Origin: an uncultured Rhodospirillaceae bacterium
GTDB taxonomy: Bacteria; Pseudomonadota; Alphaproteobacteria; MPNO01; UBA830
Direction of reading: 5' to 3'
Assembly: GCA_963977005.1 (NCBI GenBank)
Contig: CAXBMQ010000024.1
Coordinates: 1,050-65,049, forward strand
Length of the DNA: 64,000 bases
Below, one piece after another: positions 1,876 through 16,182 of the stretch (positions are counted from its first letter, which is position 1; each line of letters starts with the position of its first letter). The notes below the pieces were generated by a model, which saw only the letters and a list, made by a program, of their open reading frames with translations, searched no databases and was not told the DNA's origin. The translations under genes and the position numbers were made by a program.

Positions 1876-2688
1876 ATGCTCAGAAAAATTTTCCGCCTGA
1901 TTCCCGCCACCCTGACCGCCTGCGTCGCCTGTGTGTTCGCGCTTGGCGCCCATGCGGGTTCGATTACCCTGGATTTCGATGCGGTCGGTGACGGCGCAAT
2001 CGTCTCCGACGGCACCAGTTCGACGGGCGCGTATAGCGGCATCTCGATCTCGGCGCGCAATGCGGGTAGCGGTCCGGACCTCGCGGTCGCCTATGACAGC
2101 GGCGGCGCCATCGGGCACGACAACGACCTCGAAGAAAACCGCTACGCATCGCGCTTTACCAATGCCGCGACGGGCACCGGCGGTTTTACCGGGTTCGGCA
2201 ATGTTCTAGTGGTTCAGGAAAACAGCGTCGGTTGCGGCACAGGCGGGGTGTGCGACCGGCCGGATGACGATGCCGGCGGCGGGTCTTTGCGCTTCGCCTT
2301 CGACGACGTTCACCTGCTCGAAAGCTTCGATTATTTCGACATCGACGGATCGCCCGACCAGCAGGCGGAAACCATGGCCGTGAAACTGTTCCTGTCCGAC
2401 GGTTTCGGATGGACGGATACGGTCAACGGAACGGACGTGCTGCTCCTCGACGACCTGCTGTCGACCGGCGGCGATAACACCTTCCGGACACATGTGCTCG
2501 ACAACCCGCTGGCCGTTTTCGGTATCGAGTTCCAATTCTCCAGCTCGGGTGCCATCGACAACCTCGTGCTCGACACGCTTATCACGTCGACGGAAGTTCC
2601 GGCGCCGGCGACGATGCTGGTCTTCGTTACCGGCCTGCTTGGTCTGGGCGCGCTGGCGCGACGCCATCGGGCATCTGCCGCCGCGTAA
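1876..2688 (+). CDS. PEP-CTERM (VPAP-type) sorting-domain surface protein
   Basis: N-terminal signal peptide (...ALGAHA); C-terminal VPAPATMLVFVTGLLGLGALARR is the motif + TM helix + basic tail; ATG 1876 preferred over GTG 1837. Confidence 0.85.
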   Translation: MLRKIFRLIPATLTACVACVFALGAHAGSITLDFDAVGDGAIVSDGTSSTGAYSGISISARNAGSGPDLAVAYDSGGAIGHDNDLEENRYASRFTNAATGTGGFTGFGNVLVVQENSVGCGTGGVCDRPDDDAGGGSLRFAFDDVHLLESFDYFDIDGSPDQQAETMAVKLFLSDGFGWTDTVNGTDVLLLDDLLSTGGDNTFRTHVLDNPLAVFGIEFQFSSSGAIDNLVLDTLITSTEVPAPATMLVFVTGLLGLGALARRHRASAAA

Positions 2689-2815
2689 ATCATACCTGCG
2701 GTCGCGCGAGCCCTGTCGACGGGGCGCTCTTTCATTTTTCATATATCCGATACCCGAGTTGCCCGCCGATCCGAATTGAGCCACCTTCGGCTCTAATGCG
2801 TCTGGAGGGAGAAGC

Positions 2816-3619
2816 ATGGGGAACCCGCGTCATACGGCAAGATTCGATCTGACAGGAAAGTCCGCGCTGGTCGTCGGCGCGGCCGGCACCTTCGGGCGCG
2901 CCGGTGCCTTGGCGCTCGGCGAGGCAGGCGCCAGGCTGACCGTCGCCGATCAGGACACCGCAAACATCAACGCCGTCGCCGGCGACCTGTCGGATGCGGG
3001 CATTGCGGCCAGCGCCGTCGCCTTGTGGCCCGACTGCGAGGCAAATGCGGCGAAGATCGTCCAGGCCGCCGTCGATGCCCATGGCAGGCTGGACATCGTG
3101 TTCATTGCCCTGGGCACGAACGATGTCGCCTTTGTCGAAGATCAATCCGAAGACGGCTGGCGCAAGGTCATGGACGCCAATCTCGATAGCTACTGGCGTA
3201 CCTGCCAGGCCGCCGGGCGGCAGTTTGCCCGCCAGCCCGCCGCGGACGACCGGTACAAGATCACGGTCGCGTCCTCGACACGGGGCAGGCTGGGGCATCC
3301 CAGCGGATATGCCGCCTACTGCGCATCCAAATCGGGCCTGGACGGCATGGTCAGGGCGCTTTCCGGAGAGTGGGGACCAAAGAACATCAACATCAACGCC
3401 ATCGGGCCGACCGTCTTCCGCTCGCCGGTAAGCGAATGGATGTTCGACGAAGAAGGACCCGGCAAGGCCGTGCGCGACAACATGCTGCAGCGGATTCCCA
3501 TCGGCCGGCTCGGCGATGTCGACGACCTGATGGGCGGGCTGGTCTACCTGTCGTCGCCCGCGTCGGATTTCATGACGGGCCAGACGATCTATATCGACGG
3601 CGGGTATACCGCGATCTGA
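2816..3619 (+). CDS. SDR family oxidoreductase (gluconate 5-dehydrogenase-like)
   Basis: VGAAGTFG nucleotide-binding motif, catalytic YCASK, C-terminal TGQTIYIDGG; GGAG RBS. Confidence 0.9.
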   Translation: MGNPRHTARFDLTGKSALVVGAAGTFGRAGALALGEAGARLTVADQDTANINAVAGDLSDAGIAASAVALWPDCEANAAKIVQAAVDAHGRLDIVFIALGTNDVAFVEDQSEDGWRKVMDANLDSYWRTCQAAGRQFARQPAADDRYKITVASSTRGRLGHPSGYAAYCASKSGLDGMVRALSGEWGPKNININAIGPTVFRSPVSEWMFDEEGPGKAVRDNMLQRIPIGRLGDVDDLMGGLVYLSSPASDFMTGQTIYIDGGYTAI

Positions 3620-3638
3620 CCGCCCTGCCCGCGATGCA

Positions 3639-4874
3639 CTAGCCGTGCCTGGTCCGGTGACGCTGGTGGTACGGCACCATGGCGGTCTGCGCCAGCCGGT
3701 TCAGCGACGGCTCATCGCTTTCCATCGAAGCGTCCCGGATCGCGACAAGAACCTTGCCGAGCGTCGTCTCCCCCCATAGCCAGTTGGCGACCTCAACGTC
3801 GCTTGATCGCTGGTCGGGCCGGGCGATGGCCGCTTCGGTGTAAAAATACCGCATATCATCCGCCATACGCTTGAAGCCGACACCCAGGGGCAGGCCTTCC
3901 AGTGGCGGCGCGGTGCCTGCCGGATCGACGAGAACATCGGCGATCACGCGGGCGATCTCCTCCGGCGTCTTGCCGGAAATCCCGAACGCCGAACGCTTGA
4001 ACGATTTCACCGCTTCTTCGTACCACGGCCGCAGCAGATTCACCTCCTGCAGCAGCGACCGGTAGACCAGATCGGCATCGCCGAGATCGTCCGCAGGGGC
4101 TGCGAAATTAACGGGGCAGGCCCAGCCTTCTGTATCGTCATCGGCTCCCGCATCGGGCGGCGGATCGGGAAAATCCTCGAGCACGGGTCCGGCAGGCTTT
4201 TCAAGAAGCTTGAGGACCTCGAGCAATACCCGGCGCTGAAATTCAGGTTCGTTTGGCGCCCCAAGCGGGCGGCCGAGTTCGAACGGCACGGCAAGCGCGC
4301 GCGGCGGCTTCATCTTTTCCGTGTGCGTCCGGATCAGGCTGATCTGGGTGGTCGGAATGCCTTCCTCTTCGATGATATGTGCAAGCCCGCCCACGGCGCG
4401 CGTACATTGCGGTCAGACCGGGACCAGCAGGACCGCATCGACCCGGCCCTGTTTGAGCAACCCGGCCAGGTCGCGCGCGACCGGTTCCATCACCGCCGGC
4501 GGCGTCGCCCCCATGAACGAGTAATGACGGGCGGCAGCCGATCCGATCGTGCCATCGTCGACCAGCTCGTGCAGCCGATCGACCGGAAACGACGTGTTGA
4601 CGTCCTGAAAGAAACCGGTGCGGTCGAAATTGGTCGACACATGGCTCATCACCAGGTCGTCCATATCCGCATCGTCGGGAATCACCCGGTAATCGCCGGC
4701 ACCGGGCACGAAGGGCGAATCCTCGCGGCGATGCAGCCCCGCCGTGCTGATGATGGCAACCCTGCTCTCTGCCAGCGGCTTGGCCACAACCCAAGGCGTC
4801 GTCTCGTAGTCCGGCAGATCCTGATTGACCAACGCGTCGCGCAGGTGTTCCGGCATTTCGTGCAGATGAACCAT
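3639..4874 (-). CDS. Putative selenoprotein: PrdB/GrdB-like (glycine/betaine/sarcosine/D-proline reductase selenoprotein B) domain plus C-terminal extension, 411 aa, Sec at codon 154 (UGA 4413-4415)
   Basis: ORFs 4413-4874 and 3639-4394 share a frame; read-through gives VLLVPV-U-PQCTRAVGGLAHIIEEEGIPT; PrdB-like motifs RVAIISTAGLH, FPVDRL, HYSFMG. Confidence 0.85.
4377..4407 (-). promoter_or_regulatory. Candidate bacterial SECIS hairpin
   Basis: mRNA +6..+36 after UGA: AUGUAC-GCGCGCC-GUG-GGCGGGC-UUGCACAU; apical loop begins G-U at +19. Confidence 0.6.
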
Positions 4875-5035
4875 TATGTCTCCAGGGCAATTTCTTGTCG
4901 CGGGCGTATCCTACAACAAGGGGCTTTTACCTACACGCACAAGTCTTGTTCAGATCTCCATCCCAGAGGAATCGCGATAAGGGGGCGGCGATATGGAATA
5001 ATACCCGGAAACAAGCCTGCCGGTACGACGTTCAG

Positions 5036-6388
5036 ATGCCTCCGCAATCCCCCTTCCTGACCGCCCCGATCGGGCCGACGATCATCCGCCTCGCGGCACC
5101 GAACATGATCGCCATGCTCGTGACCATGATCACCCTGATGGCGGAGGCCTGGTATGTCAGCCGGCTCGGCACGGTCTCGCTGGCGGGCCTGGCCCTGGCT
5201 TTTCCGATGATGATGCTGACCATGTTCCTGTCGGCGGGTTCCATCGGCGGCGCGATCACAGGATCTGTGGCCCAGCGTCTCGGCGCCGGCGACCGCGACG
5301 GCGCCGAAGTGCTTGCCTTCCATGCCGTGCTTCTGGCGGTCGGACTGGCGGTCGTATCGGCCGTGATTTTCCTCACAGGCGGCCCCGCGATCTATGGCGC
5401 ACTCGGCGGCACCGACGCCGTTCTGCGCGAGGCGCTGGCCTATTCCGACGTGCTGTTCTGGGGGGTGGCCAGCATGTGGCTGGCGAATGCCCTCGCCGCC
5501 ATCGTCCGTGCGACGGGGCACATGAAAATTGCGGCGAAATACCTGGTAGCGGGATCTGTCGTCCAGATCGCGGCGGCGGGCGTTCTGGTGCTGGGTATCG
5601 GTCCGTTTCCCGGGCTCGGCATCGGCGGTGCGGCGGCCGGGGTCGTGATCGGTCATGGCGTCGCTGCCTTGCTGTTGTTTTACCATCTGACGACCCGATG
5701 CCAGGAACTGCGCCTCCGCTTCACCGGGATTGCCGTCAGAACCGCGCCGATGGCGGCTATTCTGAAAGTCGGCGCTTTGTCGTCGGTGAACTCCTTCTGC
5801 TCGCTGGCAGCCATCATCATCATCACCGCCTTCATGGCGCGGTTCGGCGTCGATATTCTTGCCGGATACGGGGTCGGCTCACGGCTCGAATTCCTCATTA
5901 TTCCCCTCATCTTCGGATTCGGGGCGGCCTCCACCGCCCTGGTCGGGGTCCATTTCGGCGCCGACAAAATCGAGCGGGCACACCGCTTCGGCTGGACGGC
6001 CGCGATGTACAGCGCCGCCATGTGCGGTTTGATCGGCGTAGCCGCGGCGCTTTTTCCGGGCGTGTGGACGAACCTGTTTACGGAAGCCGAAGCCGTGCGC
6101 GCGGCAAGCAACGGCTACCTGCAGATCGCCGGGCCGTTCTATGCCTTCTTCGGCCTGGCGTTGTGCCTGTATTTCGGCTCGCAAGGGGCTGGACGGGTAC
6201 TTTGGCCGGTCATTGCGGCGCTCCTGCGCGTCGTTGTTGTGCTTGTCGGCGGGATCGTTCTGTTGCGCAGCGAAAGCCCCGACCCTGCCGATTTCTTCTG
6301 GTTGATCGCGGCCGGCATGGCGACCCAGGCGATTGTCTCGGGTGTGGCCATCCGGTTCGGCGCCTGGACCCGGGGCCTCGACCGCTAG
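5036..6388 (+). CDS. MATE family efflux transporter
   Basis: About 12 hydrophobic segments; IIRLAAP, AGYGVGSRLE, VGVHFGA motifs; start at ATG 5036 inferred. Confidence 0.88.
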   Translation: MPPQSPFLTAPIGPTIIRLAAPNMIAMLVTMITLMAEAWYVSRLGTVSLAGLALAFPMMMLTMFLSAGSIGGAITGSVAQRLGAGDRDGAEVLAFHAVLLAVGLAVVSAVIFLTGGPAIYGALGGTDAVLREALAYSDVLFWGVASMWLANALAAIVRATGHMKIAAKYLVAGSVVQIAAAGVLVLGIGPFPGLGIGGAAAGVVIGHGVAALLLFYHLTTRCQELRLRFTGIAVRTAPMAAILKVGALSSVNSFCSLAAIIIITAFMARFGVDILAGYGVGSRLEFLIIPLIFGFGAASTALVGVHFGADKIERAHRFGWTAAMYSAAMCGLIGVAAALFPGVWTNLFTEAEAVRAASNGYLQIAGPFYAFFGLALCLYFGSQGAGRVLWPVIAALLRVVVVLVGGIVLLRSESPDPADFFWLIAAGMATQAIVSGVAIRFGAWTRGLDR

Positions 6389-6478
6389 ACTTTCGCCGGC
6401 CTGCGCTCCCGGCTCTCGCGGACAATCCGCGATCGAATGAACCCCGTATCACCGCAACCTGACCGGAAACCCTCAGGA

Positions 6479-6493
6479 TTAAGCGGTTTTTAA
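6479..6493. promoter_or_regulatory. CtrA-type binding site
   Basis: Perfect TTAA-gcggttt-TTAA (TTAA-N7-TTAA) in the intergenic region upstream of the TBDR operon. Confidence 0.55.
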
Positions 6494-6572
6494 GCAAAAT
6501 TTGTCAGAAATGCCGCTGCATAGCTGTGCGCAGATTTCTGCCAATTCTGGCCTAGCCCCGGGGGCTTATTCC

Positions 6573-8633
6573 ATGTCGATGTCTTGTCTTCTCCGCCGGT
6601 TGAATCGGGGCCGCGCCGCGTCCGTCACGAGGCCCCCGTTCGGACGCGGAGCCCTACGCTCTCTGCCGCTTTCGGTGGCTCTGACGGTTGTGTTCTGCGC
6701 GCTTTCGGCAGGCGCACAACAGGCAGAAAGCGACCTGACGCGGCTGTCGCTCGAACAGCTCATGGATATCAAGATCACGTCTGTCGCGAAGAAACCGCAA
6801 CGGGTGTCGCAATCGGCGGCAGCGGTCCACGTGATTACCAGCGAGGATATCCGGCGATCGGGCGCGACCAGTATCCCCGAACTCCTGCGCAACGTGCCCG
6901 GCCTGAACGTCGGGAAGATCGACGCCAACAAATGGGCTATTTCGGCGCGCGGCTTCAACGGCCTCTTTTCGAACAAGCTGCTCGTTCTGATGGATGGCAG
7001 AAGCGTCTATACGCCCTTGTTCTCCGGCGTTTTCTGGGACGTCCAGGATACGTTTCTCGACGACATCGAACGGATCGAGGTCGTGCGCGGCCCCGGCGGC
7101 AGCCTGTGGGGGGCGAACGCGGTCAATGGCGTGATCAATATCATCACCAAAAACACCGAAGAGACGACGGGTACGCTGGTCAGAGGCATTCACGGCACCG
7201 AAGAGAAAGTGAATATCGCCGGCCGCTTCGGACAGGCAATCGACGACCGGTCGAACCTCCGCCTGTTCGCCAAGAACTTCCGGCGGGACGGCGGCGTGCT
7301 CGCCAATGGCAACGACGCCGACGACGACTGGAGCATGCAGCGCGGCGGATTCCGCTATGACAGAAAGCCGGCTTCCGGCGGCAGCTTCATGCTGCAGGGC
7401 GAGGTGTATTTCGGCCAGAACGGACAGCTCGTTGCACTGCCCACGCTGACGGCACCGTTTGCCGAAGTGACCAGCGACGACACCAAGGTGGAAGGACAGT
7501 TTTTGCTGGGCCGCTGGCAGAATGCCTCGGATTTCACCCTGCAGGCCTATTTCGACCGGGCAATCCGCGACGACATCCATGTCGGCTCGGGCACGCGCAC
7601 ATTCGATGTGGACCTGCAGAAACGGTACAACTCATTGCGGTCCCACGACATAATCGTCGGCGGCGGATACCGCTTTACCACCGATTTCACCATCGGAACC
7701 AACCAGGTCTGGTTCGATCCGAAGGACGACGATTACCACCTGTTGAGCGCTTTCGTGAACGACGAGATTTCACTTAGCGACACGCTCAAGCTTGTTCTCG
7801 GCACGAAGGTGGAATTCAACAGTTTTACCGGTTTCGAGATACAGCCCTCGGTACGGTCCTTGTGGAACGTCACACCGGCCCACACGCTCTGGGCCGCTGT
7901 GTCCAGGGCGGTTCGAACACCGTCCCGGGCAGCGGACGCTGCCACCATCAACAATTCAGTGCGTCCGGGCACACCGCCCGTGCAGGCGCGGATACTCGGA
8001 AACGACGACGTCAAATCGGAGGAGCTGACGGCCTTCGAACTCGGGTTCAAGTCCCGCCCGCTGCCCAGCCTGTCGGTCGACGTCGCGGCTTTCTACAACG
8101 TCTACGACCGCCTCGTGACGACCGAACCCGGCACCGCTTTTCTCGAAAACACGCCGGCGCCTGCACATCTCGTTCAACCGCTGCTATTCGCGAACAACAT
8201 GTCTGGCGAGGCGTACGGATTGGAGCTTAGTGCAGACTGGCGCGCGCGTGACTGGTTCAGGGTGCGCGGCAGTTACACACTTTTCGAGCTCGAACTTCAC
8301 CGTAAAGCGGGAACCGGTACGGCCTCGAACGAGGCGGCGGAAAAACGCGATCCGCGTCACCAGCTGTCGTTGACGGCAGAGCTGGATCTGGGATCCGATG
8401 TGGAGCTTGACGCGACATTCCGCGCGGTCGACCGGCTCAGCGAACGGAACATTCGCGGTTATATGACCGCCGATGTCCGTCTTGCCTGGAAGCCCCTGGA
8501 CAATGTGGAACTGTCGCTGGTCGGAAGAAACCTGCTGCAGAGCCAGCAGGCGGAAGCCCGGCCGGAATTTCTCTCGACACAGATTACGGAGGTGGAACGC
8601 AGCTTCTACGGCAGCCTGAAAATCGAATTCTAG
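6573..8633 (+). CDS. TonB-dependent receptor (YfiR-associated type)
   Basis: Plug motifs VITSEDIRRSGATSIPELLRNVPG and IERIEVVRGPGGSLWGANAVNGVINIITK; C-terminal Phe; start uncertain (6501/6573/6579). Confidence 0.92.
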   Translation: MSMSCLLRRLNRGRAASVTRPPFGRGALRSLPLSVALTVVFCALSAGAQQAESDLTRLSLEQLMDIKITSVAKKPQRVSQSAAAVHVITSEDIRRSGATSIPELLRNVPGLNVGKIDANKWAISARGFNGLFSNKLLVLMDGRSVYTPLFSGVFWDVQDTFLDDIERIEVVRGPGGSLWGANAVNGVINIITKNTEETTGTLVRGIHGTEEKVNIAGRFGQAIDDRSNLRLFAKNFRRDGGVLANGNDADDDWSMQRGGFRYDRKPASGGSFMLQGEVYFGQNGQLVALPTLTAPFAEVTSDDTKVEGQFLLGRWQNASDFTLQAYFDRAIRDDIHVGSGTRTFDVDLQKRYNSLRSHDIIVGGGYRFTTDFTIGTNQVWFDPKDDDYHLLSAFVNDEISLSDTLKLVLGTKVEFNSFTGFEIQPSVRSLWNVTPAHTLWAAVSRAVRTPSRAADAATINNSVRPGTPPVQARILGNDDVKSEELTAFELGFKSRPLPSLSVDVAAFYNVYDRLVTTEPGTAFLENTPAPAHLVQPLLFANNMSGEAYGLELSADWRARDWFRVRGSYTLFELELHRKAGTGTASNEAAEKRDPRHQLSLTAELDLGSDVELDATFRAVDRLSERNIRGYMTADVRLAWKPLDNVELSLVGRNLLQSQQAEARPEFLSTQITEVERSFYGSLKIEF

Positions 8634-8681
8634 GCCGGCTTTCAGGACATTTCATTATCCCCGCAATATGACCGATCGGCA

Positions 8682-9248
8682 TTGAACTCTTTGGCAAAAT
8701 TCCGTCACTTCCTTCGTTTCCTGGCTGCAATCGCGCTTGTCGCGACGCTTCTGCAGACCCCGGGCCATGCCATAACGGTATCGGACGAAGATCGTGTCAA
8801 AGCGGCTTTCGTGTTCAACTTCATCAAGTTTGTCGAATGGCCCGAGACGTCTTTCAAAAACCCGGCCGCGTCCCTGAATGTGTGCGTTTGGGGAAGCGAG
8901 GCCGATGCAGATTCAATGGTCGGGCTGCAACGAAAAACCGCCAAGCAGAGGGAACTCAAAGTCGTCGCGGTCAACGCAGCCGAGGAACTGGCGGCGTGTC
9001 ATGTTCTGTTTCTGACCCGGAACAGCCGCAGCAGCTACAGGACCGTACTCCGGTCGATTGCAGATAAAAGCGTCCTGACGGTCAGCGATATCGCCGGTTT
9101 TGCGCAGAGCGGCGGCCTGATCGGCCTGTTCAAATCCGACAATCAGATGCGCTTTGCCATCAATGTCGAGGCAACGCAGAGATCCGGGCTGCGGATGAGT
9201 GCCCAGCTCCTGAAATTCGGCAAAATCGTCTCGGGCGGGGGCCACTGA
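8682..9248 (+). CDS. YfiR family (DUF4154) periplasmic protein
   Basis: Signal peptide; [40 protein letters not shown]; two Cys. Confidence 0.9.
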
Positions 9249-9250
9249 TC

Positions 9251-12070
9251 ATGGGTTTTCCTGCCGCGCTCCGGAACCTGTCGATCAAGCGCAAGCTGTT
9301 TGCTCTCTCGGTCTCTATTTCCGCTCTCGGACTCCTGTTGTCGGCGATCGCGTTCACGGTTCTGGACTATACAAACCTGAAAAAGCGCATCGTAGCGGAT
9401 CATCAGAAACTGATTTCCATCGTCGCCAGCAACGTTGTCGCCCCGCTTGCCTTCGCTGACCGAAACGCCGCCCAAGCGGTGTTGAACGGACTTTCCAGCG
9501 CCGAATCCATCGACGCCGCCTACATCCACGACAGGCACGGCAACCTGTTCTTGCAGAAAAAAATGGCCAAGGTCGCCGGGCAGCACCGCCCGTTCGATAG
9601 ACAAACGGACAGTCGGGACCGGGCCGGCCACCGGTTTGAACACGGCGGCCTGACAATCTGGACCGCGGTTGAGCTTGATGGCGAAACCCTGGGGCACGTG
9701 CACCTGTCGGTAAATCTGAATGACCTGAACCGGTATCTGAGAGACCGTTTTATTATCGGTGCCGGACTTACATTTCTGCTGACGATTGTGTCGGCACTCC
9801 TGGCGGCCTCGATGGCCGGCCTGATTTCGAACCCGATCCGGGAACTCACCCGTCGGATGGGCCGGGTCAGTGAAAACCAGGACTATTCGATCAGAATGCC
9901 CGCAAGTGCCGGTGATGAGGTCGGCCGGCTTGTAACGGGATTCAATTCAATGCTCGACACGATCGAGGAGAGGGATTCCGAGCTCGACACCTACCGCCAC
10001 GATCTCGAACAACTTGTCGCCGATCGAACCGCAGAACTCGAAATCCGCAACCGCGAACTGCTTGCGGCGAAGGATTCCGCCGAACGCGCCAGCGCTGCAA
10101 AATCCGAATTTCTCGCGAATATGAGCCATGAAATCCGTACGCCGATGAATGGCGTGATGGGCATGGCCGACCTGCTGGGGGACACGGACCTGAACGACCG
10201 CCAGGAACGATTCGTCCGCAACATCCGCAATAGCGGCGAGAATCTTCTGAACGTGATCAACGATATTCTCGACTTCTCCAAGATCGAAGCCGGAAAATTC
10301 GAACTGTCGCTGTCGGACGCCAATATCCGTGACGTTATCGAAGAGCAGATGGACCTTCTCGTCCCGGCAGCCCATAAAAAGGGGCTGGAATGCACCGTGT
10401 TCGTATCGGACGACTTGCCGGATGTCCTGCGGGGCGACTTCGGCCGGATACGCCAGATACTCACCAACCTCGTCGGCAACGCGATCAAATTTACCGAACG
10501 GGGCGAAGTCACGGTACGGGTCACCGTCGTGGAGACGGCGCGCGACCAGGTGAAACTACGCCTCGAGGTCGCGGATACCGGTATCGGTATCGCCGCGGCG
10601 GACCAGGCCCGCCTGTTCGGGTCATTTGAGCAGGTCGACAGCTCCGCATCGCGGCAGTTCGGGGGGACGGGTCTCGGTTTGTCGATTGCCCGTCATCTTG
10701 CCACCCTGATGAACGGGGACATCGGCGTTACCAGTGCGCCCGGCAAGGGCTCCACATTCCGCGCCGACATCGTGCTTGAAACAGCTTCGCCGCCGACTTC
10801 CGCCGCCTTTGACCGGCAAGACACAGGGGCTTTTCCGATCGTGCCGGGACTGCGCGTTCTCGTCGTCGACCCCCATGAGACGAGCCGCAATGTTATGCGA
10901 CGGTACCTGGAGGACCGGCAAATCGACTGCCTGTGTGTCGGCGATGGCGGTGCCGCACTCGCCGAACTCGAAACATCCGATGCTGAGGCAGAGGCTTTCG
11001 ACCTGGTAATCGCCGACATTGCAACACCCGGCACAAACGGGATGCCCCTCGTTCGCCAGATCAGATCGGGTGACCGAAACCGGGATATCCCGATCATTCT
11101 GTTATCGACCGACAACCTCGCCCCCGAAAGCGCCGATCCCTTGCAACAGGTCGAAGCATATCTTGCAAAGCCCGTCCATCGGTCCGAACTGTATGCGCGA
11201 CTCACAGAAGTTTTATCTCCGGCTACCGCAATTCCGGCTGCCGAACCGGCACCTTCAAAGCCTGCACGGGCAAGCATGAAATTCAACGCCCATGTCCTGC
11301 TTGCGGAAGACAACGAGGTGAACCAGATCGTCGCAATGGAGCAACTCCTGGCATTCGGCTGCCAGGTGGACGTCGCCCGGAACGGTCGGGAAGCGATCGA
11401 CGCTTTCATGGAGCGCGACTACGACCTCGTTCTGATGGATTGCCAGATGCCGGAAATGGACGGCTTTCAGGCGGTCTCGCTCATCCGGGAGCATGAGGCG
11501 GCAACGCAGGCGCACACGCCCGTTATCGCTCTGACCGCCCATGCATCGCCGGAAGACCGGGCGAAATGTCTGGATGCCGGGATGGATGAGCATCTGTCGA
11601 AACCGTTCAAACGCGAACAGCTTTTCGCCGTTCTCGAAACCTTTCTTTCCAAAGAACGTCTTGCAGGTCGGCGGGACCGGGAGGAGACGCGGGAAGCGCG
11701 GCCTCCGGCGGAGGCCGTCGACGCCGGACAATTCATAGACCCGTCTGTCGCCGATCCGCTGCGCAATGGCAATCCCGACCTCTGGAACCGGCTGATTGCC
11801 GCCTATCTTGCCTCAGCGGCCGAGAAACGCGCGGAGCTGGTTCAGGGGTTTTCGGACGACAATACCGACACTATCCGCCTCGCCGCCCATACCCTGAAGG
11901 CATCGAGCGCCAACATGGGCGCCATGCGGTTGTCGGAAAAATTCCGCCGACTGGAGATCGCTGCCCGCGACGGCGATCCCGATGCGATGAAAGCGCTTTT
12001 CAGCAATGCCGATGCCGAACTGACAAACGTGCTTGCCGCGCTATCCCGCGAGCAGACAACAACCGGCTGA
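9251..12070 (+). CDS. Hybrid sensor histidine kinase (TM-CHASE8-like-TM-HAMP-HisKA-HATPase-REC-REC-Hpt)
   Basis: [16 protein letters not shown]-box, [26 protein letters not shown], two receivers ([16 protein letters not shown]), Hpt AHTLKASS. Confidence 0.93.
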
Positions 12071-12074
12071 CAGC

Positions 12075-13466
12075 CTACGCCCCGGTCGCTCCTGCAATCT
12101 CGCGCCCGGCAATCCGTCCGATACCGAAAGCCTTGATCAATCCGCCGACATAGCCCGCCCGGGGACCGCCTTCGAGCCCGCCGACAACGGAACCGGCAGC
12201 ATACAGGCCGGGAATCGGGGATCCGGCCGTATCCAGCACCCGCGCCCGCCCGTCGACGGCGACACCCCCCGACGTCACGGTAAGCCCGGCGCAGAGCGGG
12301 ATCGCATAATACGGCGGCTTTTCAACCATGTGCGCGGGGTAGGTCAGCGTCGTGCGGGCCGGGCTGAGCGCCGGCGCACTACCGGCACGCACCAAGCCGT
12401 TGAATGCCTCGACGGTCGCAGCCAGGCCGGTCGCGTCGAGCCCGGCCATTGCCGACAGTTCGTCGAGCGTGTCGGCCTGAAACACCGTGCCGCCGTTTTC
12501 GACCAGGGACGGGTTGGGCGGCACGATATCGTTTTCTCGCGCATCTTCCCAGACCGACGAATCGAAAATAGCGGTCGCCGACAATGGATCGGCCAGCCCG
12601 GCAATCGCATTGGTAACGTAAATTCCCCCGAGTCCTTCATCGCAAAACCGGTTGCCGTCGGGCGTGACGACCAGGCCCTTGGCGCAGATGACATCGAGTT
12701 GCGGATACGGCCAGAGGCTCTCGTTTGTCAGCGCATCGCGGCTGAGCACGTGGCCGTAGAACTTGTCGAGCCCGACGAGCGCCGCGCCGATCTCCGCCGC
12801 CATCCGCAGGCCGTCGCCCCTGCCCGTCTCCGTGTTGCGCTGCCGGACCTTGGCCGGATCCGACGTGATGTGCCTGCCAATCAATTCACGGTCCGCCTGA
12901 AATCCGCCATCGGCGATGACCACCGCTTTTGCCGCGATCCGCTCGCCGTCCTCGAGTTCCAGACCCGCCACGATGCCCGCCTCCATCAGGATGCGCGATG
13001 CACGGGCACCCCGGCGCAGTTCGCCCCGGCGCTCGGTGAGTTTCGCCCCCAGCGCCTGCAGGAAAAGATGAGGGCCGCTGTTTTCCCAGTCGAGCCCCGC
13101 GCGCATGGCGCGGCCCGGCGCCATCATCGGCATGCCCCAGGACCGGCGCGGATGCTGCAGAAATTCGCTGCCCTCCTTACGCATCCAGTCGATGGTCTCC
13201 TGCGCATTGTCGGCAACCGCCCGTGCAAGGTCTTCGCGCGCCGTGCCGTCGGTCGCGTCGATTATCGCCTTGTACAGGGCCTCCGCCGGCTCTTCGGGAC
13301 CGTGAAACGCCACGTGGAGCGCGCCGGTAGCGACACGGGAATTGCACATATAAAAATCGTCGGTGCCGGCCTCGAGGACAACCGGCCGCGCGCCGCCCAG
13401 GGCCGCATGATTGGCGGCCGTCAGACCGGCAAACCCGCCGCCGATTATCGCTACATCGAATGTCAT
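12075..13466 (-). CDS. FAD-dependent oxidoreductase (flavocytochrome c/TcuA-like, FAD_binding_2)
   Basis: DVAIIGGGFAGL, VVIADGGF, TSGGVAVD, IPGLYAAG. Confidence 0.85.
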   Translation of the reverse strand: MTFDVAIIGGGFAGLTAANHAALGGARPVVLEAGTDDFYMCNSRVATGALHVAFHGPEEPAEALYKAIIDATDGTAREDLARAVADNAQETIDWMRKEGSEFLQHPRRSWGMPMMAPGRAMRAGLDWENSGPHLFLQALGAKLTERRGELRRGARASRILMEAGIVAGLELEDGERIAAKAVVIADGGFQADRELIGRHITSDPAKVRQRNTETGRGDGLRMAAEIGAALVGLDKFYGHVLSRDALTNESLWPYPQLDVICAKGLVVTPDGNRFCDEGLGGIYVTNAIAGLADPLSATAIFDSSVWEDARENDIVPPNPSLVENGGTVFQADTLDELSAMAGLDATGLAATVEAFNGLVRAGSAPALSPARTTLTYPAHMVEKPPYYAIPLCAGLTVTSGGVAVDGRARVLDTAGSPIPGLYAAGSVVGGLEGGPRAGYVGGLIKAFGIGRIAGREIAGATGA

Positions 13467-14824: not shown

Positions 14825-14855
14825 GAGGCGCCTTTCGGGGCGCCTCTTTCGTTTT
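14825..14855 (+). terminator. Rho-independent terminator
   Basis: GAGGCGCC-tttcgg-GGCGCCTC then T-rich tail. Confidence 0.75.
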
Positions 14856-14940
14856 GCCAATCTGCGCCGCCCGATATTCATCACTTGATGGCGGCAGCGC
14901 CCCGCGCAAAGATACGAAGACACCGTATCGGATGGCCGCC

Positions 14941-16182
14941 ATGAAATCGCGATATCACCACGAAATTCCGGCGCATGACCCTACCCTCACGCATGTCGAG
15001 CGCGGCTCGCCCATGGGCGAAATGCTGCGCCGCTACTGGCAGCCTGTCTGCACCTCCGACGAGGTCGGCGAACTGCCGAAGCGCGTGCGTATCATGTGCG
15101 AGGACCTTGTTCTCTTCCGCGACGGGACCGGCGGAACCGGCTGTCTCGAACTCCATTGCCCGCATCGCGGCACCTCTCTCGAATGGGGCCGGGTCGAAGA
15201 AGACGGGCTGCGCTGCTGCTATCACGGCTGGAAATTCGCAACCGACGGCCGGTGTGTCGACATGGCCTGCGAAAGCGACGAATTCCGCGAAAAGATGGAT
15301 GTCTGGCAAGCCGGCTACCCGACCCACGAATATGGCGGGCTGGTCTTCATCTACATGGGCCCACCGGCGGAAATGCCCCTCTTCCCGATGTACGACATTC
15401 TCGACACCCGCCACCGCGACGACGTCGAACTGCGCGGGATGCGACTGTGGGAAGACCATGCCATCGGCTATGTCCGGGACTGCAACTGGCTTCAGCACTA
15501 TGAAAACGTCATCGATGCCTTCCATCTGCTGATCCTTCATGCCGCGAATTCCGGCGACCAGTTCGGCAGCGTCGTCACCACAACGGGTTGGCCCGATCTC
15601 GACTTCGAGGAAACCGATCTCGGCGTCCGCTACAACATGCGGCGAAACCTTCCCAACGGAAACAGACTGGAACGCCATGCCGAGGTCGTGCTGCCGAATA
15701 TCAGCCTGATCCCCAGCATCCACGAACAGGGCACGGACGCAAAGCACCAGGAACGCGCAACCGAGGTGACCTGGTGCGTGCCGGTCGATAACGAACACCT
15801 CTACGGTATTTCCATCGTTGCCTGGCCAAAGGACGATGCCGGCAATCCCCTCGACGGCTGGAAACCGGGTACCGACACGGTCACCGACATCCGCCCGGGA
15901 AATCTCCGCAACCGACCTTACGAAGACAAGCAGCGCAATCCCGACGATATGGAAGCCCAGGAAAGCCAGCGGCCGATTGCGATCCATGCGCTTGAAAATC
16001 TCGCGACGTCCGATCGCGGTATCGTGCTGCTGCGCCGCCAGCTGCGGCGGTCGCTCGACCGGCTTGCAGCGGGTAAGGACCCTGCCAATATCATTCGCGA
16101 CGACGACGCCAATCACGCCATCGAAACCCACGCCTGGAACACCGTCATCCTGCCCGACGCGCCGAGCGAGGCCGCCGAATAA
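14941..16182 (+). CDS. Rieske oxygenase alpha subunit (phthalate 4,5-dioxygenase-like)
   Basis: PMGEMLRRYWQPV, CPHRG...CCYHGW, NWLQHYENVIDAFHLLILH, ENLATSDRG; start approximate. Confidence 0.88.
   Translation: MKSRYHHEIPAHDPTLTHVERGSPMGEMLRRYWQPVCTSDEVGELPKRVRIMCEDLVLFRDGTGGTGCLELHCPHRGTSLEWGRVEEDGLRCCYHGWKFATDGRCVDMACESDEFREKMDVWQAGYPTHEYGGLVFIYMGPPAEMPLFPMYDILDTRHRDDVELRGMRLWEDHAIGYVRDCNWLQHYENVIDAFHLLILHAANSGDQFGSVVTTTGWPDLDFEETDLGVRYNMRRNLPNGNRLERHAEVVLPNISLIPSIHEQGTDAKHQERATEVTWCVPVDNEHLYGISIVAWPKDDAGNPLDGWKPGTDTVTDIRPGNLRNRPYEDKQRNPDDMEAQESQRPIAIHALENLATSDRGIVLLRRQLRRSLDRLAAGKDPANIIRDDDANHAIETHAWNTVILPDAPSEAAE

Follow-up and report, generated by a model that had tools for sequence, protein, structure and literature searches.

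Organization of the locus

Three genes on the + strand of the window, the whole 64,000-nucleotide stretch of DNA analysed here, encode a TonB-dependent receptor (TBDR), a DUF4154 (YfiR-like) protein and a hybrid sensor histidine kinase with a CHASE8 sensor domain. In agreement with the preliminary description of this DNA, open reading frames, translations and Pfam confirmed that the genes are co-oriented, encode the proposed domains and are separated by 48 bp (8634-8681) and 2 bp (9249-9250), respectively. The genes, their features and their neighbours are the following.

4895-6388, +, MatE efflux protein, upstream neighbour of the trio
6573-8633, +, TBDR of 686 aa, TOL_0244-like family, predicted 22-strand barrel plus plug (Pfam, NCBIfam, AlphaFold2)
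6573-6716, +, predicted TBDR signal peptide, residues 1-48, ending in SAGA (read from the translation; putative cleavage site; pLDDT <50 at residues 1-32 and 41-58 of the model)
6732-6770, +, TBDR motif DLTRLSLEQLMDI, residues 54-66, conserved in TBDRs adjoining YfiR-like genes
6807-7133, +, TBDR Plug domain, residues 79-187 (Pfam PF07715, 80.4 bits)
8682-9248, +, YfiR-like periplasmic protein, DUF4154, 188 aa (Pfam PF13689, E 3.2e-42)
9251-12070, +, hybrid sensor histidine kinase of 939 aa: TM, CHASE8, TM, HAMP, HisKA, HATPase, REC, REC, Hpt (Pfam)
9404-9706, +, kinase CHASE8 periplasmic sensor domain, residues 52-152 (Pfam PF17152, 40.4 bits, cut-off 27)
9440-9460, +, kinase A64-P65-L66-A67-F68-A69-D70, counterpart of the YfiN 'AAVVF' motif (alignment)
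9812-9970, +, kinase HAMP, residues 188-240 (Pfam PF00672, 45.7 bits)
10097-10771, +, kinase core, HisKA 283-348 and HATPase_c 396-507 (Pfam; H-box SHEIRTP read)
10841-11635, +, two kinase receivers, the first at about 531-660 and the second at 682-795 (Pfam Response_reg, two stretches, the best 682-795)
11792-12043, +, kinase Hpt domain, residues 848-931 (Pfam PF01627, 35.3 bits; HTLKASS read)
12075-13466, -, FAD oxidoreductase, downstream neighbour, convergent with the trio

The TBDR reading frame begins upstream at a TTG (6501), and the ATG at 6573 is supported as the start by the same-genus orthologue, whose alignment begins at residue 1. Besides the Plug, Pfam detected a TonB_dep_Rec_b-barrel domain (109 bits), and the best Foldseek matches to the AlphaFold2 monomer model (pLDDT 88.4, pTM 0.87) were Cir, PirA, FepA/PfeA, ChuA and BtuB, at 14-18% identity. 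The YfiR-like gene was assigned a TTG start at 8682, possibly TTG 8691 since the 185-aa sequences of close homologues start some three residues further on, and its signal peptide runs up to about A30. A profile of 28 YfiR-like homologues matches the solved P. aeruginosa YfiR structures (E 4.1e-13). At the hydrophobic pocket and surface residues of YfiR that are named in excerpts of PMC4655355 and PMC3375315, the alignment showed hydrophobic character to be kept at F151 (I147 here), A164 (I160), V176 (M172), V180 (L176), L181 (L177) and F162 (F158); R171 (R167) and N165 (N161) are retained, as is Cys69/Cys106, the counterpart of YfiR Cys71/Cys110. Unlike YfiR, the protein lacks the Cys145-Cys152 disulfide; its identity to E. 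coli YfiR is only 19%, and a subfamily profile gave canonical YfiRs only 34-60 bits, versus 90-207 for TBDR-linked ones.

No sigma-70/FecR, STN, ABC, periplasmic-binding or receiver families were found in the neighbouring open reading frames scanned (454-21224), and tblastn across the whole contig gave no receiver or kinase-core match beyond the kinase of the trio. This is in keeping with the claimed absence of adjacent ECF sigma/FecR, uptake and response regulator genes. Elsewhere, the genome encodes TonB, ExbD and a second, classical TBDR.

Recurrence of the trio

NCBIfam has three consecutive models for such a trio, NF053590 (TOL_0244 family TBDR), NF053591 (TOL_0243 family) and NF053592 ('sensor histidine kinase, YfiR-like protein-associated'), which are the best-match models of the three proteins, in the same order. 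The window lies at the edge of these families, as only the YfiR-like protein passes its cut-off (129.5 bits, cut-off 125), the TBDR being 5 bits short (640.4, cut-off 645) and the kinase sensor domain well below (142.7, cut-off 194). Full trios at two other loci (L056 and L008) exceed all three cut-offs. These models supply names, not a mechanism.

Conservation of the triplet had been set beforehand as a test, and the trio recurred in both surveys performed. The first considered the best 80 of 562 confirmed relatives; relatives span at least six phyla (Acidobacteriota, Desulfobacterota, Pseudomonadota, Verrucomicrobiota, Nitrospirota and Ignavibacteria). Of these 80 loci 77 could be assessed for the gene immediately upstream of the YfiR-like gene, which encodes a co-oriented TBDR in 61; the gene immediately downstream encodes a CHASE8-HAMP sensor in 71 of 78 (63 detected by tblastn and 8 by Pfam). 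The second survey sampled 300 Pseudomonadota genomes evenly and covered 94 DUF4154 loci in them. A TBDR is present within 3.6 kb at 72 of them (58/73 genomes, 37/50 genera and 21/26 families), and the textbook YfiR-YfiN-YfiB layout was seen at only 6. The arrangement is far beyond chance expectation, and TBDR, YfiR-like protein and kinase almost certainly constitute a real, conserved three-part module.

TBDR-YfiR pairs are duplicated as units at two loci (L051 and L019). Across 13 loci of Terriglobales-like kind, the 'a' type of YfiR is found with the main TBDR type only (5/5), and the 'b' type accompanies the divergent TBDR type in 10 of 11; the pairing has two exceptions (L027 and L067). Other layouts occur as well. 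In the Pseudomonadota survey, 22 of the 94 loci have no TBDR within 3.6 kb, 11 of these consisting of YfiR and a CHASE8 kinase alone; 8 keep the TBDR-YfiR pair with no CHASE8 sensor nearby, and in 20 the TBDR is downstream of the kinase. At two alphaproteobacterial loci (L023 and L028) the upstream position is taken by a gene for a giant RTX/cadherin adhesin and not by a TBDR gene, and in the only other genome of the same genus with the trio the TBDR gene has an in-frame stop, the other two genes being intact.

Could the TBDR be an output of the system? The YfiR-like protein and kinase would then sense, for instance, the envelope or redox state, and the TBDR would be merely co-transcribed or regulated, as PfeA is by PfeSR. 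The eleven YfiR-kinase pairs, the same-genus stop codon and the retained Cys69/Cys106 pair agree with this, and Malone 2012 (PMC3375315, in part) viewed YfiR-YfiN as the ancient core. Against it stand the eight sensor-less TBDR-YfiR pairs and the regulators encoded next to related kinases, which are usually enzymes or further kinases and carried no DNA-binding domain in 13 of 13 cases checked with Pfam. In addition, the paralogue co-variation, and the motif and weak complex prediction described below, link the TBDR to the YfiR-like protein and not to the kinase output. We consider this explanation quite improbable.

Proposed coupling of receptor, YfiR-like protein and kinase

As in YfiBNR (TpbB, P. 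aeruginosa) and E. coli YfiR-DgcN-YfiB, a periplasmic DUF4154 protein is encoded beside a TM-CHASE8-TM-HAMP sensor, with the gene of an outer-membrane partner in the same operon; as proposed, the TBDR occupies the place of YfiB in this layout. Unlike in YfiBNR, the partner is a 22-strand TBDR instead of an OmpA/Pal-like lipoprotein, and the sensor continues into a hybrid kinase with Hpt instead of GGDEF. The view that the kinase input resembles that of YfiN was borne out. Its CHASE8 domain scores above the cut-off, though as a divergent member (40 bits versus 60-74 in relatives), its N-terminal 240 residues are colinear with residues 14-233 of E. coli DgcN/YfiN (E 4e-10), and it keeps the Phe of the YfiR-binding 'AAVVF' motif of YfiN, defined by Malone 2012 (PMC3375315, in part). 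All 65 sensor N-termini aligned, E. coli DgcN included, have Phe at this motif column, and 63 of 65 have the next Asp. The YfiR-like protein in turn keeps the hydrophobic C-terminal surface, and in one genome a DUF4154 domain is fused in front of a hybrid kinase. Homology with YfiR-YfiN suggests that the YfiR-like protein docks on the kinase CHASE8 domain; colinearity, the invariant Phe, the kept pocket residues and the fusion all favour this pairing, and such binding is likely.

The segment before the plug, singled out in the preliminary description, proved to be a conserved signature of YfiR-linked TBDRs. The motif sits between the predicted signal peptide and the Plug, immediately N-terminal to a TonB-box-like strand, KITSV (residues 67-71). 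Its consensus in TBDRs beside YfiR-like genes is DLTxLSLEDLM (or DLTxLSLEELM), L63 being invariant in 42 sequences. In two genomes (G197 and G293) it is present in 10 of 10 DUF4154-linked versus 2 of 30 unlinked TBDRs, and of the two TBDRs of the window's own genome only the YfiR-linked one has it. Despite its conservation, the motif is modelled in the monomer as flexible and with low confidence. As it adjoins the TonB box, it could alternatively be an extended TonB-binding region of this clade. FecA-FecR-FecI is a known case of TBDR cell-surface signalling, with an STN domain, an anti-sigma factor and an ECF sigma factor. Here too a TBDR N-terminus would signal to a periplasm-exposed regulator, but there is no STN (Pfam found only Plug and barrel in the TBDR), the extension is about 13 residues, anti-sigma and ECF sigma factors are absent and the signal would be received by a soluble YfiR-like protein together with a kinase.

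The further proposal that this segment binds YfiR fared unevenly: direct contact gained weak support, and its placement at the N-terminal motif did not. The predicted complex of TBDR and YfiR-like protein scored 0.52 (runs 0.49, 0.53 and 0.52) and the best of three controls 0.00; the runs share at least 86% of contacts, with a partner pLDDT of at least 84. The counts of the calibration hold only roughly for this fold, which used alignments of our own. Of 157 solved complexes 116 attained the mark, as did 2 of 215 mismatched pairs; only 18 of the 157, but both mismatches, passed with scores of at most 0.60. By this calibration, passes of such strength are wrong more often than right, except where a guess had good prior odds. 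The fold gave no interface, and the contact is therefore not tied to the motif.

A different explanation is that the TBDR transports a small ligand, which binds the YfiR-like protein or CHASE8 and alters gating. The YfiR-like protein would then be a periplasmic co-sensor, as in TorT-TorS and LuxP-LuxQ, making no contact with the TBDR. In PfeA-PfeSR and PirA-PirSR of P. aeruginosa, the TBDR gene also lies beside that of a sensor kinase, which there senses the imported siderophore and induces the receptor; PfeA and PirA are near our TBDR in Foldseek, but both systems lack a DUF4154 protein and use a DNA-binding regulator of the classical kind. The TBDR model is that of an ordinary transporter near Cir, PfeA and BtuB, in a genome with TonB and ExbD, and ligand specificity would also account for both the TBDR/YfiR paralogue co-variation and the free gene order (20 loci with the TBDR downstream). 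TOL_0244, the name-giving TBDR of the family, was up sevenfold on n-C28 alkane (PMC6304351). A TBDR to which a sensing role, not a nutritional one, has been ascribed is OmpS (B5T_01485) of Alcanivorax dieselolei, which reportedly senses alkanes and triggers chemotaxis (Wang and Shao 2014); we regard it as a lead only. According to excerpts, OmpS has 40.3% similarity to TOL_0244 (PMC6304351) and is termed the essential alkane sensor (PMC9788540). The YfiR fold is described as resembling a type I periplasmic binding domain with a deep conserved pocket (PMC4655355, in part), and the aligned pocket residues are kept here. Import followed by sensing leaves the motif specific to YfiR-linked TBDRs unexplained, however, and the complex fold of 0.52 versus 0.00 argues weakly for contact; inner-membrane uptake genes are lacking beside the module, though import for sensing only needs none. 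We judge this explanation unlikely.

Motif specificity, paralogue co-variation, unit duplication, sensor-less pairs and the complex fold favour a TBDR-YfiR link. The TBDR probably acts upstream of the YfiR-like protein; that the coupling is by direct contact and not by an imported ligand is a nearly even call, and that the motif itself is the contact site is doubtful.

Output of the relay and proposed mechanism

The second receiver of the kinase (682-795) has what we take to be the canonical motifs of the family. The idea that a phosphorelay replaces c-di-GMP was only partly right and, as worded, is not supported. In 4 of the 80 related loci the CHASE8 sensor itself ends in GGDEF-EAL, and one related sensor is split from a PAS-HD-GYP protein. 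By a crude rule for open reading frames that makes these counts lower bounds, at least 19 of the 55 kinase loci that have room downstream show a REC-GGDEF/EAL regulator as the next gene; receiver proteins without GGDEF/EAL follow in 17 and none in about 19. These GGDEF/EAL ends and regulators indicate that the relay frequently sits above c-di-GMP as a further step and does not take its place; in many cases, though not in all, it leads to c-di-GMP enzymes. In the window's organism the relay might still end at a non-c-di-GMP regulator, c-di-GMP being truly replaced, a possibility in line with the 17 and about 19 loci just mentioned and with the lack of a regulator on the whole contig. The REC-GGDEF/EAL regulators, GGDEF-EAL sensors and PAS-HD-GYP split of relatives argue against it, as does a three-receiver GGDEF protein of the same genome (G000:C5:130989-132740), a candidate by similarity only, 37-38% identical over its full length to module-adjacent regulators of two related loci (L010 and L013). 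We regard true replacement as conceivable, if not what we expect.

We propose, tentatively and at somewhat less than even confidence, that the trio is one envelope-spanning sensory module in which TBDR, YfiR-like protein and kinase are directly coupled in this order. The YfiR-like protein would dock on CHASE8 around A-P-L-A-F68-x-D and hold the kinase in one signalling state. The outer-membrane TBDR would be the input: once ligand-loaded, with its N-terminus released towards TonB, it would expose the flexible motif beside the TonB box and capture the YfiR-like protein, like YfiB in YfiBNR, so that CHASE8 is freed and the kinase switched. The Hpt His would receive phosphate relayed from His via Asp and hand it to a response regulator whose gene lies elsewhere in the genome, with c-di-GMP and surface behaviour as the likely end point, judging by the recognisable regulators of relatives (mostly REC-GGDEF/EAL). 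The TBDR-less and RTX/cadherin loci, TBDRs downstream of the kinase, the pairing exceptions and the same-genus stop codon count against this mechanism, as do the divergent CHASE8 domain of the window and its NF053592 score below the cut-off.

The statement that the system lacks functional characterisation agrees with our literature search, which found no experimental work on a link of the TBDR to the YfiR-like protein or kinase. The neighbourhood was, however, already codified in the NCBIfam trio models, and Malone et al. 2012 (PMC3375315, in part) had reported YfiR-kinase pairs without YfiB from in silico work. Across many phyla, the TBDR-YfiR-kinase trio probably forms an envelope-spanning signalling chain.

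The three genes and their surroundings

In agreement with the preliminary description, open reading frames and their translations show three co-oriented genes, with a gap of 48 bp between the receptor and YfiR-like genes and of 2 bp between the YfiR-like and kinase genes. A promoter/terminator scan of the + strand between these genes found nothing, the number of sites being at or below that in shuffled sequences.

6573-8633, + strand: TonB-dependent receptor (TBDR); Plug and barrel by Pfam
8682-9248, + strand: DUF4154/YfiR-like protein; Pfam DUF4154, E 3.2e-42
9251-12070, + strand: hybrid histidine kinase, 939 aa; CHASE8, HAMP, HisKA, HATPase_c, two receiver stretches and Hpt by Pfam
Upstream neighbour of the trio: MatE efflux gene
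Downstream neighbour of the trio, convergent: FAD oxidoreductase gene

The receptor has the general make-up of a TonB-dependent transporter, that is, the Pfam Plug and barrel domains and, in an AlphaFold2 monomer model (pLDDT 88.4, pTM 0.87), a 22-strand barrel; its putative TonB box is placed by position at residues 65-71. Foldseek searches with this model returned generic transporters alone (14-18% identity) and gave no clue to a substrate. The YfiR-like frame opens at the TTG codon at 8682. Its closest homologues, of 185 aa, begin three residues further in, and translation may in fact begin at the TTG codon at 8691 (window 8682-8693). The CHASE8 match of the kinase scores 40.4 bits (Pfam cut-off 27), and its HisKA, HATPase, receiver and Hpt domains are all above the Pfam cut-offs, which identifies a hybrid phosphorelay kinase of the BarA/TorS-like kind. 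It is not BarA itself, since it scores 502.6 bits with the BarA NCBIfam model against a cut-off of 890. The motifs read in its translation (21 residues not printed here, and HTLKASS) are presumably those of the phosphorelay.

The best NCBIfam models of the three proteins carry the consecutive accessions NF053590, NF053591 and NF053592, and the trio is therefore an already named NCBIfam neighbourhood, with the gene order TBDR, YfiR-like, CHASE8 sensor, adjacent and co-oriented, present in the window. The TBDR matches NF053590 ("TOL_0244 family TonB-dependent receptor") over positions 1-603 of 604 with 640.4 bits, 5 bits short of the cut-off of 645, the runner-up TBDR model reaching 109 bits. 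The YfiR-like protein passes NF053591 ("TOL_0243 family YfiR-like periplasmic protein"; 129.5 bits, cut-off 125) and misses the canonical YfiR model NF053586 (59.5 bits, cut-off 85). The kinase N-terminus spans all of NF053592 ("sensor histidine kinase, YfiR-like protein-associated"; positions 1-223 of 223) and misses its cut-off (142.7 bits, cut-off 194). Because these scores lie near or below the cut-offs, the window is a marginal member of a curator-recognised family. Two related trios, L056 and L008, clear all three cut-offs (NF053592 scores of 239.2 and 216.7), and two others, L026 and L009, fail (141.8 and 168).

The window ORFs scanned between 454 and 21224 include no gene for a sigma or anti-sigma factor, for uptake or for a receiver, and tblastn detected no second receiver or kinase-core match on the whole contig. 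This bears out the earlier observation that ECF sigma/FecR, uptake and response regulator genes are not adjacent. Pfam gives only Plug and barrel on the TBDR, and no STN domain. FecA-type cell-surface signalling was rejected on the lack of an STN domain, an anti-sigma factor and an ECF sigma factor (TBDR Pfam; ORFs 454-21224), and a siderophore uptake locus on the lack of uptake genes and on the TBDR being one of only two in the genome. That genome is 97% complete and contains, besides its two TBDRs, one TonB_C match and three ExbD matches. The other TBDR has a classical TonB box and is located ~7 kb from the sole TonB_C match and two ExbD genes (region G000:C3:216328-216639 and G000:C3:222925-224572). 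As the genome has a single TonB_C match, the TBDR of the trio must share that TonB.

The trio is surrounded by a catabolic gene neighbourhood. Genes for hydantoinase B and A (oxoprolinase-type) are present downstream (17440-21224, - strand), together with Rieske, glyoxalase and SDR genes. Rieske/VanA-type oxygenase genes are located a few kb from the trio (454-1587 and 14854-16182), and likewise near the module in three genomes of the same order (L083, L085 and L086; around bases 4600-5900). In Thalassolituus oleivorans, TOL_0244 is described as sevenfold more abundant on the n-C28 alkane and is interpreted by the authors as a receptor for alkane uptake that resembles OmpS of Alcanivorax dieselolei (PMC6304351). 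The nearby Rieske/VanA genes and this alkane induction give a thin hint that the signal might be a hydrophobic or aromatic substrate.

Conservation of the three-part module

A first survey started from an alignment of 28 YfiR-like sequences and gave 562 confirmed relatives on contigs of one genome per species, the best 80 of which were analysed by tblastn and hit-guided ORF calling, with the start codon picked by alignment; one locus without a clean YfiR ORF (L052) was excluded from the counts. These best 80 of 562 loci belong to the Acidobacteriota, Desulfobacterota, Alpha-, Beta- and Gammaproteobacteria, Verrucomicrobiota, Nitrospirota and Ignavibacteria. The preliminary description had made its proposal hinge on conservation of the triplet, and conserved it is: among the best 80 of 562, a TBDR is located directly 5' of the YfiR-like gene on the same strand in 61 of 77 assessable loci, and a CHASE8 sensor directly 3' in 71 of 78. 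For the latter, tblastn detected a CHASE8-HAMP protein at 63 of the 78 loci, and Pfam added eight (L014, L031, L033, L045, L048, L062, L066 and L069). Local domain searches showed that the sensor output at the best 80 of 562 loci is a kinase in 64 (59 complete, 5 truncated at a contig end) and PAS-GGDEF-EAL in four; at L059 a PAS-HD-GYP protein is split off from the sensor.

The 16 loci lacking a directly upstream TBDR are diverse. Three show a TBDR or TBDR fragments by Pfam (L020, L033 and L067). At L011 a TBDR ends ~100 bp 5' of the YfiR-like gene, where the ORF rule had put a spurious 97-aa frame, and at L066 it is located ~520 bp upstream. The TBDR is transcribed divergently from the YfiR-like gene at L006 and L046, and L044 has the order YfiR, TBDR, kinase; at the remainder a TBDR is absent or unclear. 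At two alphaproteobacterial loci (L023, bases 2717-7624; L028, bases 2942-7570) a Big_9/cadherin/RTX protein of 1543-1636 aa replaces the upstream TBDR. At both, this giant protein precedes a pair of YfiR-like and CHASE8-kinase genes, and it may serve as another kind of outer partner or as an output.

Among close relatives the distribution of the trio is patchy, NF053591 matching 7 of 41 genomes (the window's own included) and one of six other genomes of the genus. In the sole other trio-bearing genome of the genus the flanking genes are the same as in the window. At locus L082 (G001:C3:25268-45267) the syntenic TBDR (bases 7793-9847; 84% identical) contains one in-frame stop (VND*ISL, VNDEISL in the window), and both other genes of the trio are intact (77% identity for the YfiR-like gene, 69% for the kinase) and followed by the same FAD oxidoreductase gene. 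The stop is due either to decay of the receptor gene or to a fault in the assembly.

A second survey covered 301 Pseudomonadota genomes at least 90% complete. DUF4154 is present in 74 of them, the window's own being included in both numbers. Leaving aside the window's own genome and eight weaker matches (E 2.6e-8 to 7.9e-4), the 94 best hits were each examined with 4.5 kb of flanking sequence on either side, by local profile searches and with the E. coli proteins YfiB and DgcN as queries. A TBDR is located within 3.6 kb of DUF4154 in 72 of the 94 best loci, corresponding to 58 of 73 genomes, 37 of 50 genera and 21 of 26 families, genera and families being counted because related genomes are not independent. 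Of these 72 loci, 50 have the TBDR upstream in the same orientation, 20 (mostly of one family) have it only downstream, and two have it on the opposite strand. A YfiB-like gene follows the sensor in only six of the 94 loci, none of which has a TBDR.

Classes of the 94 DUF4154 loci of the second survey
TBDR plus CHASE8 kinase: 46 loci
TBDR plus CHASE8-GGDEF: 8 loci
TBDR plus CHASE8, output not recognised: 10 loci
TBDR, no CHASE8: 8 loci
CHASE8 kinase, no TBDR: 11 loci
YfiR, YfiN, YfiB: 6 loci
YfiR, YfiN, no YfiB hit: 2 loci
Neither TBDR nor CHASE8: 3 loci

Together, these results show a conserved three-part module, and the surveys rule out a chance adjacency of the trio. The module is expanded in one 3.7-Mb genome (G197; loci L098, L102-L104, L110, L111 and L179), which contains seven DUF4154 genes and 17 TBDRs, seven of them DUF4154-linked; several of its TBDR-DUF4154 pairs have no CHASE8 sensor nearby.

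Links of the YfiR-like protein to receptor and sensor

YfiR-adjacent TBDRs share a motif, DLTxLSLE(E/D)LM, just before a TonB-box-like strand. It is present in 66 of 67 printed N-termini, the divergent receptor type included, and the one lacking it is a minus-strand frame of the excluded locus L052. In the window TBDR the motif corresponds to residues 54-66, with L63 invariant in the alignment. The signature was derived in this analysis and is not a curated family criterion. Its specificity was assessed on all 17 TBDRs of G197 and, from the 81 of another genome, G293, on three linked and 20 unlinked ones picked by score and size. The motif was found in 10 of 10 DUF4154-linked and 2 of 30 unlinked TBDRs, a third unlinked one giving a partial match; the unlinked TBDRs of these genomes have classical TonB boxes. 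In the window's own genome only the DUF4154-linked one of the two TBDRs has it. Thus, the N-terminal segment singled out in the preliminary description turns out to be a conserved signature of YfiR-linked TBDRs. In the AlphaFold2 model residues 41-58 have pLDDT below 50 and block 61-70 averages 60, with a short strand at 67-69. A segment that is conserved and yet predicted to be disordered fits a motif that would fold upon binding a partner.

Receptor and YfiR-like paralogues also go together. Loci L051 and L019 have the layout TBDR-YfiR-TBDR-YfiR-kinase, and the L051 copies are recent duplicates, the two TBDRs being 72% and the two YfiR-like proteins 80% identical. Two types of TBDR and two of YfiR are present across 13 Terriglobales-like loci. 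YfiR "a" is confined to the main TBDR type (5/5 loci), YfiR "b" accompanies the divergent TBDR in 10 of 11 loci, and the seven loci with the divergent TBDR alone all carry YfiR "b" only. The exceptions to this pairing are L027 and L067.

The preliminary description had suggested modelling YfiR with the TBDR N-terminus. Folding was performed on the whole mature TBDR (residues 49-686) with the mature YfiR-like protein (residues 31-188), using our own alignments, and gave a score of 0.52 (runs of 0.49, 0.53 and 0.52; best of three controls 0.00), with the verdict "weak support". The runs share at least 86% of contacts, and partner pLDDT is at least 84. Of 157 solved complexes 116 attain the mark, as do 2 of 215 mismatched pairs, and passing scores of 0.60 or less include 18 of the 157 solved complexes and both passing mismatches, counts that are only rough here because our own alignments were used. 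Contact as such is therefore weakly supported, but the output gives no interface and does not localise it to the N-terminus.

Adjacency, the specific motif, paralogue co-variation and the weak complex pass tie the YfiR-like protein to the TBDR; the earlier proposal that the TBDR replaces YfiB is supported. We tentatively favour a reading in which the TBDR would sense as the input and sequester the YfiR-like protein in the manner of YfiB; the kinase would thereby be released and would relay phosphate to an unlinked regulator encoded elsewhere. The main rival assumes import followed by sensing, the YfiR-like protein being a ligand-binding co-sensor; we regard it as possible though rather unlikely. 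That the TBDR is a mere regulated target of the system appears less likely still, and in our judgement improbable.

Homology and retained motifs are what tie the YfiR-like protein to the CHASE8 sensor. The YfiR-like family profile matches the solved P. aeruginosa YfiR structures (E 4.1e-13), and pocket and surface residues given in two reports (PMC4655355, PMC3375315) were mapped onto the window protein through the profile alignment (P. aeruginosa/window: F151/I147, F162/F158, A164/I160, I169/T165, V176/M172, V180/L176, L181/L177, R171/R167, N165/N161). Counterparts of YfiR Cys71 and Cys110 are kept (C69 and C106), whereas the positions aligned with the stabilising Cys145-Cys152 disulfide are not cysteines. 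Kinase residues 1-240 are colinear with residues 14-233 of E. coli DgcN/YfiN (23% identity, E 4e-10), which, together with the Pfam CHASE8 and HAMP matches, upholds the YfiN-like TM-periplasmic-TM-HAMP input proposed earlier, including the CHASE8-like sensor domain on which that proposal depended. In YfiN, binding of YfiR was mapped to an "AAVVF" stretch of the periplasmic domain (Malone et al. 2012, PMC3375315). The corresponding Phe column is present in 65 of 65 aligned sensor N-termini and the next-but-one Asp in 63 of 65; the window counterpart is A64-P-L-A-F68-A-D70. A periplasmic DUF4154 homologue and a TM-CHASE8-TM-HAMP input with an AAVVF-type motif are thus shared with YfiBNR. In contrast, the output of YfiN is GGDEF, and the window kinase has no GGDEF but HisKA-HATPase-REC-REC-Hpt; the YfiBNR operon encodes the OmpA/Pal-like lipoprotein YfiB, whereas neither gene flanking the trio encodes an OmpA family domain.

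In G197, locus L179 (G197:C1:2022569-2031988) encodes a fused YfiR-like protein and kinase of 864 aa (bases 2476-5067, - strand), with DUF4154 (residues 50-189) before HisKA-HATPase-REC. It is followed by a REC-HD-GYP gene (bases 1196-2242, - strand).

Concerning the output, 55 kinase loci have room downstream. At least 18 of them are followed by a REC-GGDEF/EAL gene in local searches, and at least 17 by other receiver proteins (single REC, REC-kinase or REC-PAS), both being lower bounds since the stop-to-stop frames used miss genes overlapping the kinase end. L011, whose regulator the local search missed, adds one to the 18 (REC-PAS-GGDEF-EAL by Pfam). By this crude frame rule ~19 of the 55 have no neighbouring regulator, and the window's kinase is of that class. 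Pfam analysis of 13 adjacent regulators gave ten GGDEF proteins with or without EAL, two single receivers and one REC-PAS protein. The idea that a phosphorelay replaces c-di-GMP thus holds for the sensor's own domain but not for the pathway in relatives, where REC-GGDEF/EAL genes are often neighbours. The window's genome encodes a three-receiver GGDEF protein (G000:C5:130989-132740), 37-38% identical over its full length to module-side regulators in L010 and L013. As judged from its sequence, this protein is a candidate partner of the orphan kinase.

Novelty and meaning for the Yfi family

According to Malone 2012 (PMC3375315), there are many distant Yfi operons without yfiB, with GGDEF-EAL, HPT or sensor kinase outputs, one example having two YfiR homologues and a hybrid kinase, and YfiR-YfiN[PAS/HAMP] was proposed as an ancient core; the word "TonB" is absent from its main text. 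The YfiR-kinase pairing has thus been known in silico since 2012, and the trio has NCBIfam names. We found no published account of the TBDR-linked form being predominant among DUF4154 genes, of a signature motif of YfiR-linked TBDRs or of a one-to-one pairing of TBDR and YfiR paralogues. Literature searches (YfiR, DUF4154, CHASE8, TonB and TOL locus tags) found no study of a TBDR-YfiR system; the same searches found no experiment on the TBDR link, in line with the preliminary description, which knew of no functional characterisation.

A bolder proposal, which we consider doubtful, is that the DLTxLSLEELM segment is a minimal signalling device. Ligand and TonB would release the TBDR N-terminus, which would capture the soluble YfiR-like repressor, and this capture would switch CHASE8 sensors, be they kinases, GGDEF-EAL or HD-GYP proteins. 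If true, this would be a third way of TBDR signalling, beside the FecA-type STN/anti-sigma and import-then-sense routes. As most sampled DUF4154 genes are TBDR-linked, the TBDR arrangement, and not YfiBNR, would be the main form of the Yfi family.

YfiBNR is the textbook route from the state of the envelope to c-di-GMP, biofilm formation and persistence, and to our knowledge its reported occurrence is limited to a narrow range of gamma- and beta-proteobacteria. Among the sampled Pseudomonadota the lipoprotein-based version is the minority (6/94 DUF4154 loci) and the TBDR version the majority (72/94, in 37 of 50 genera). Cultured hosts of the trio include Methyloversatilis thermotolerans (L058), Desulforapulum autotrophicum (L071) and Thalassolituus oleivorans (TOL_0242-0244), from which the families take their names. 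If the receptor controls the YfiR-like protein, the module would constitute a widespread route from the outer membrane to a kinase or c-di-GMP enzyme that does without an anti-sigma factor, and it would give a concrete role to a short conserved receptor motif.
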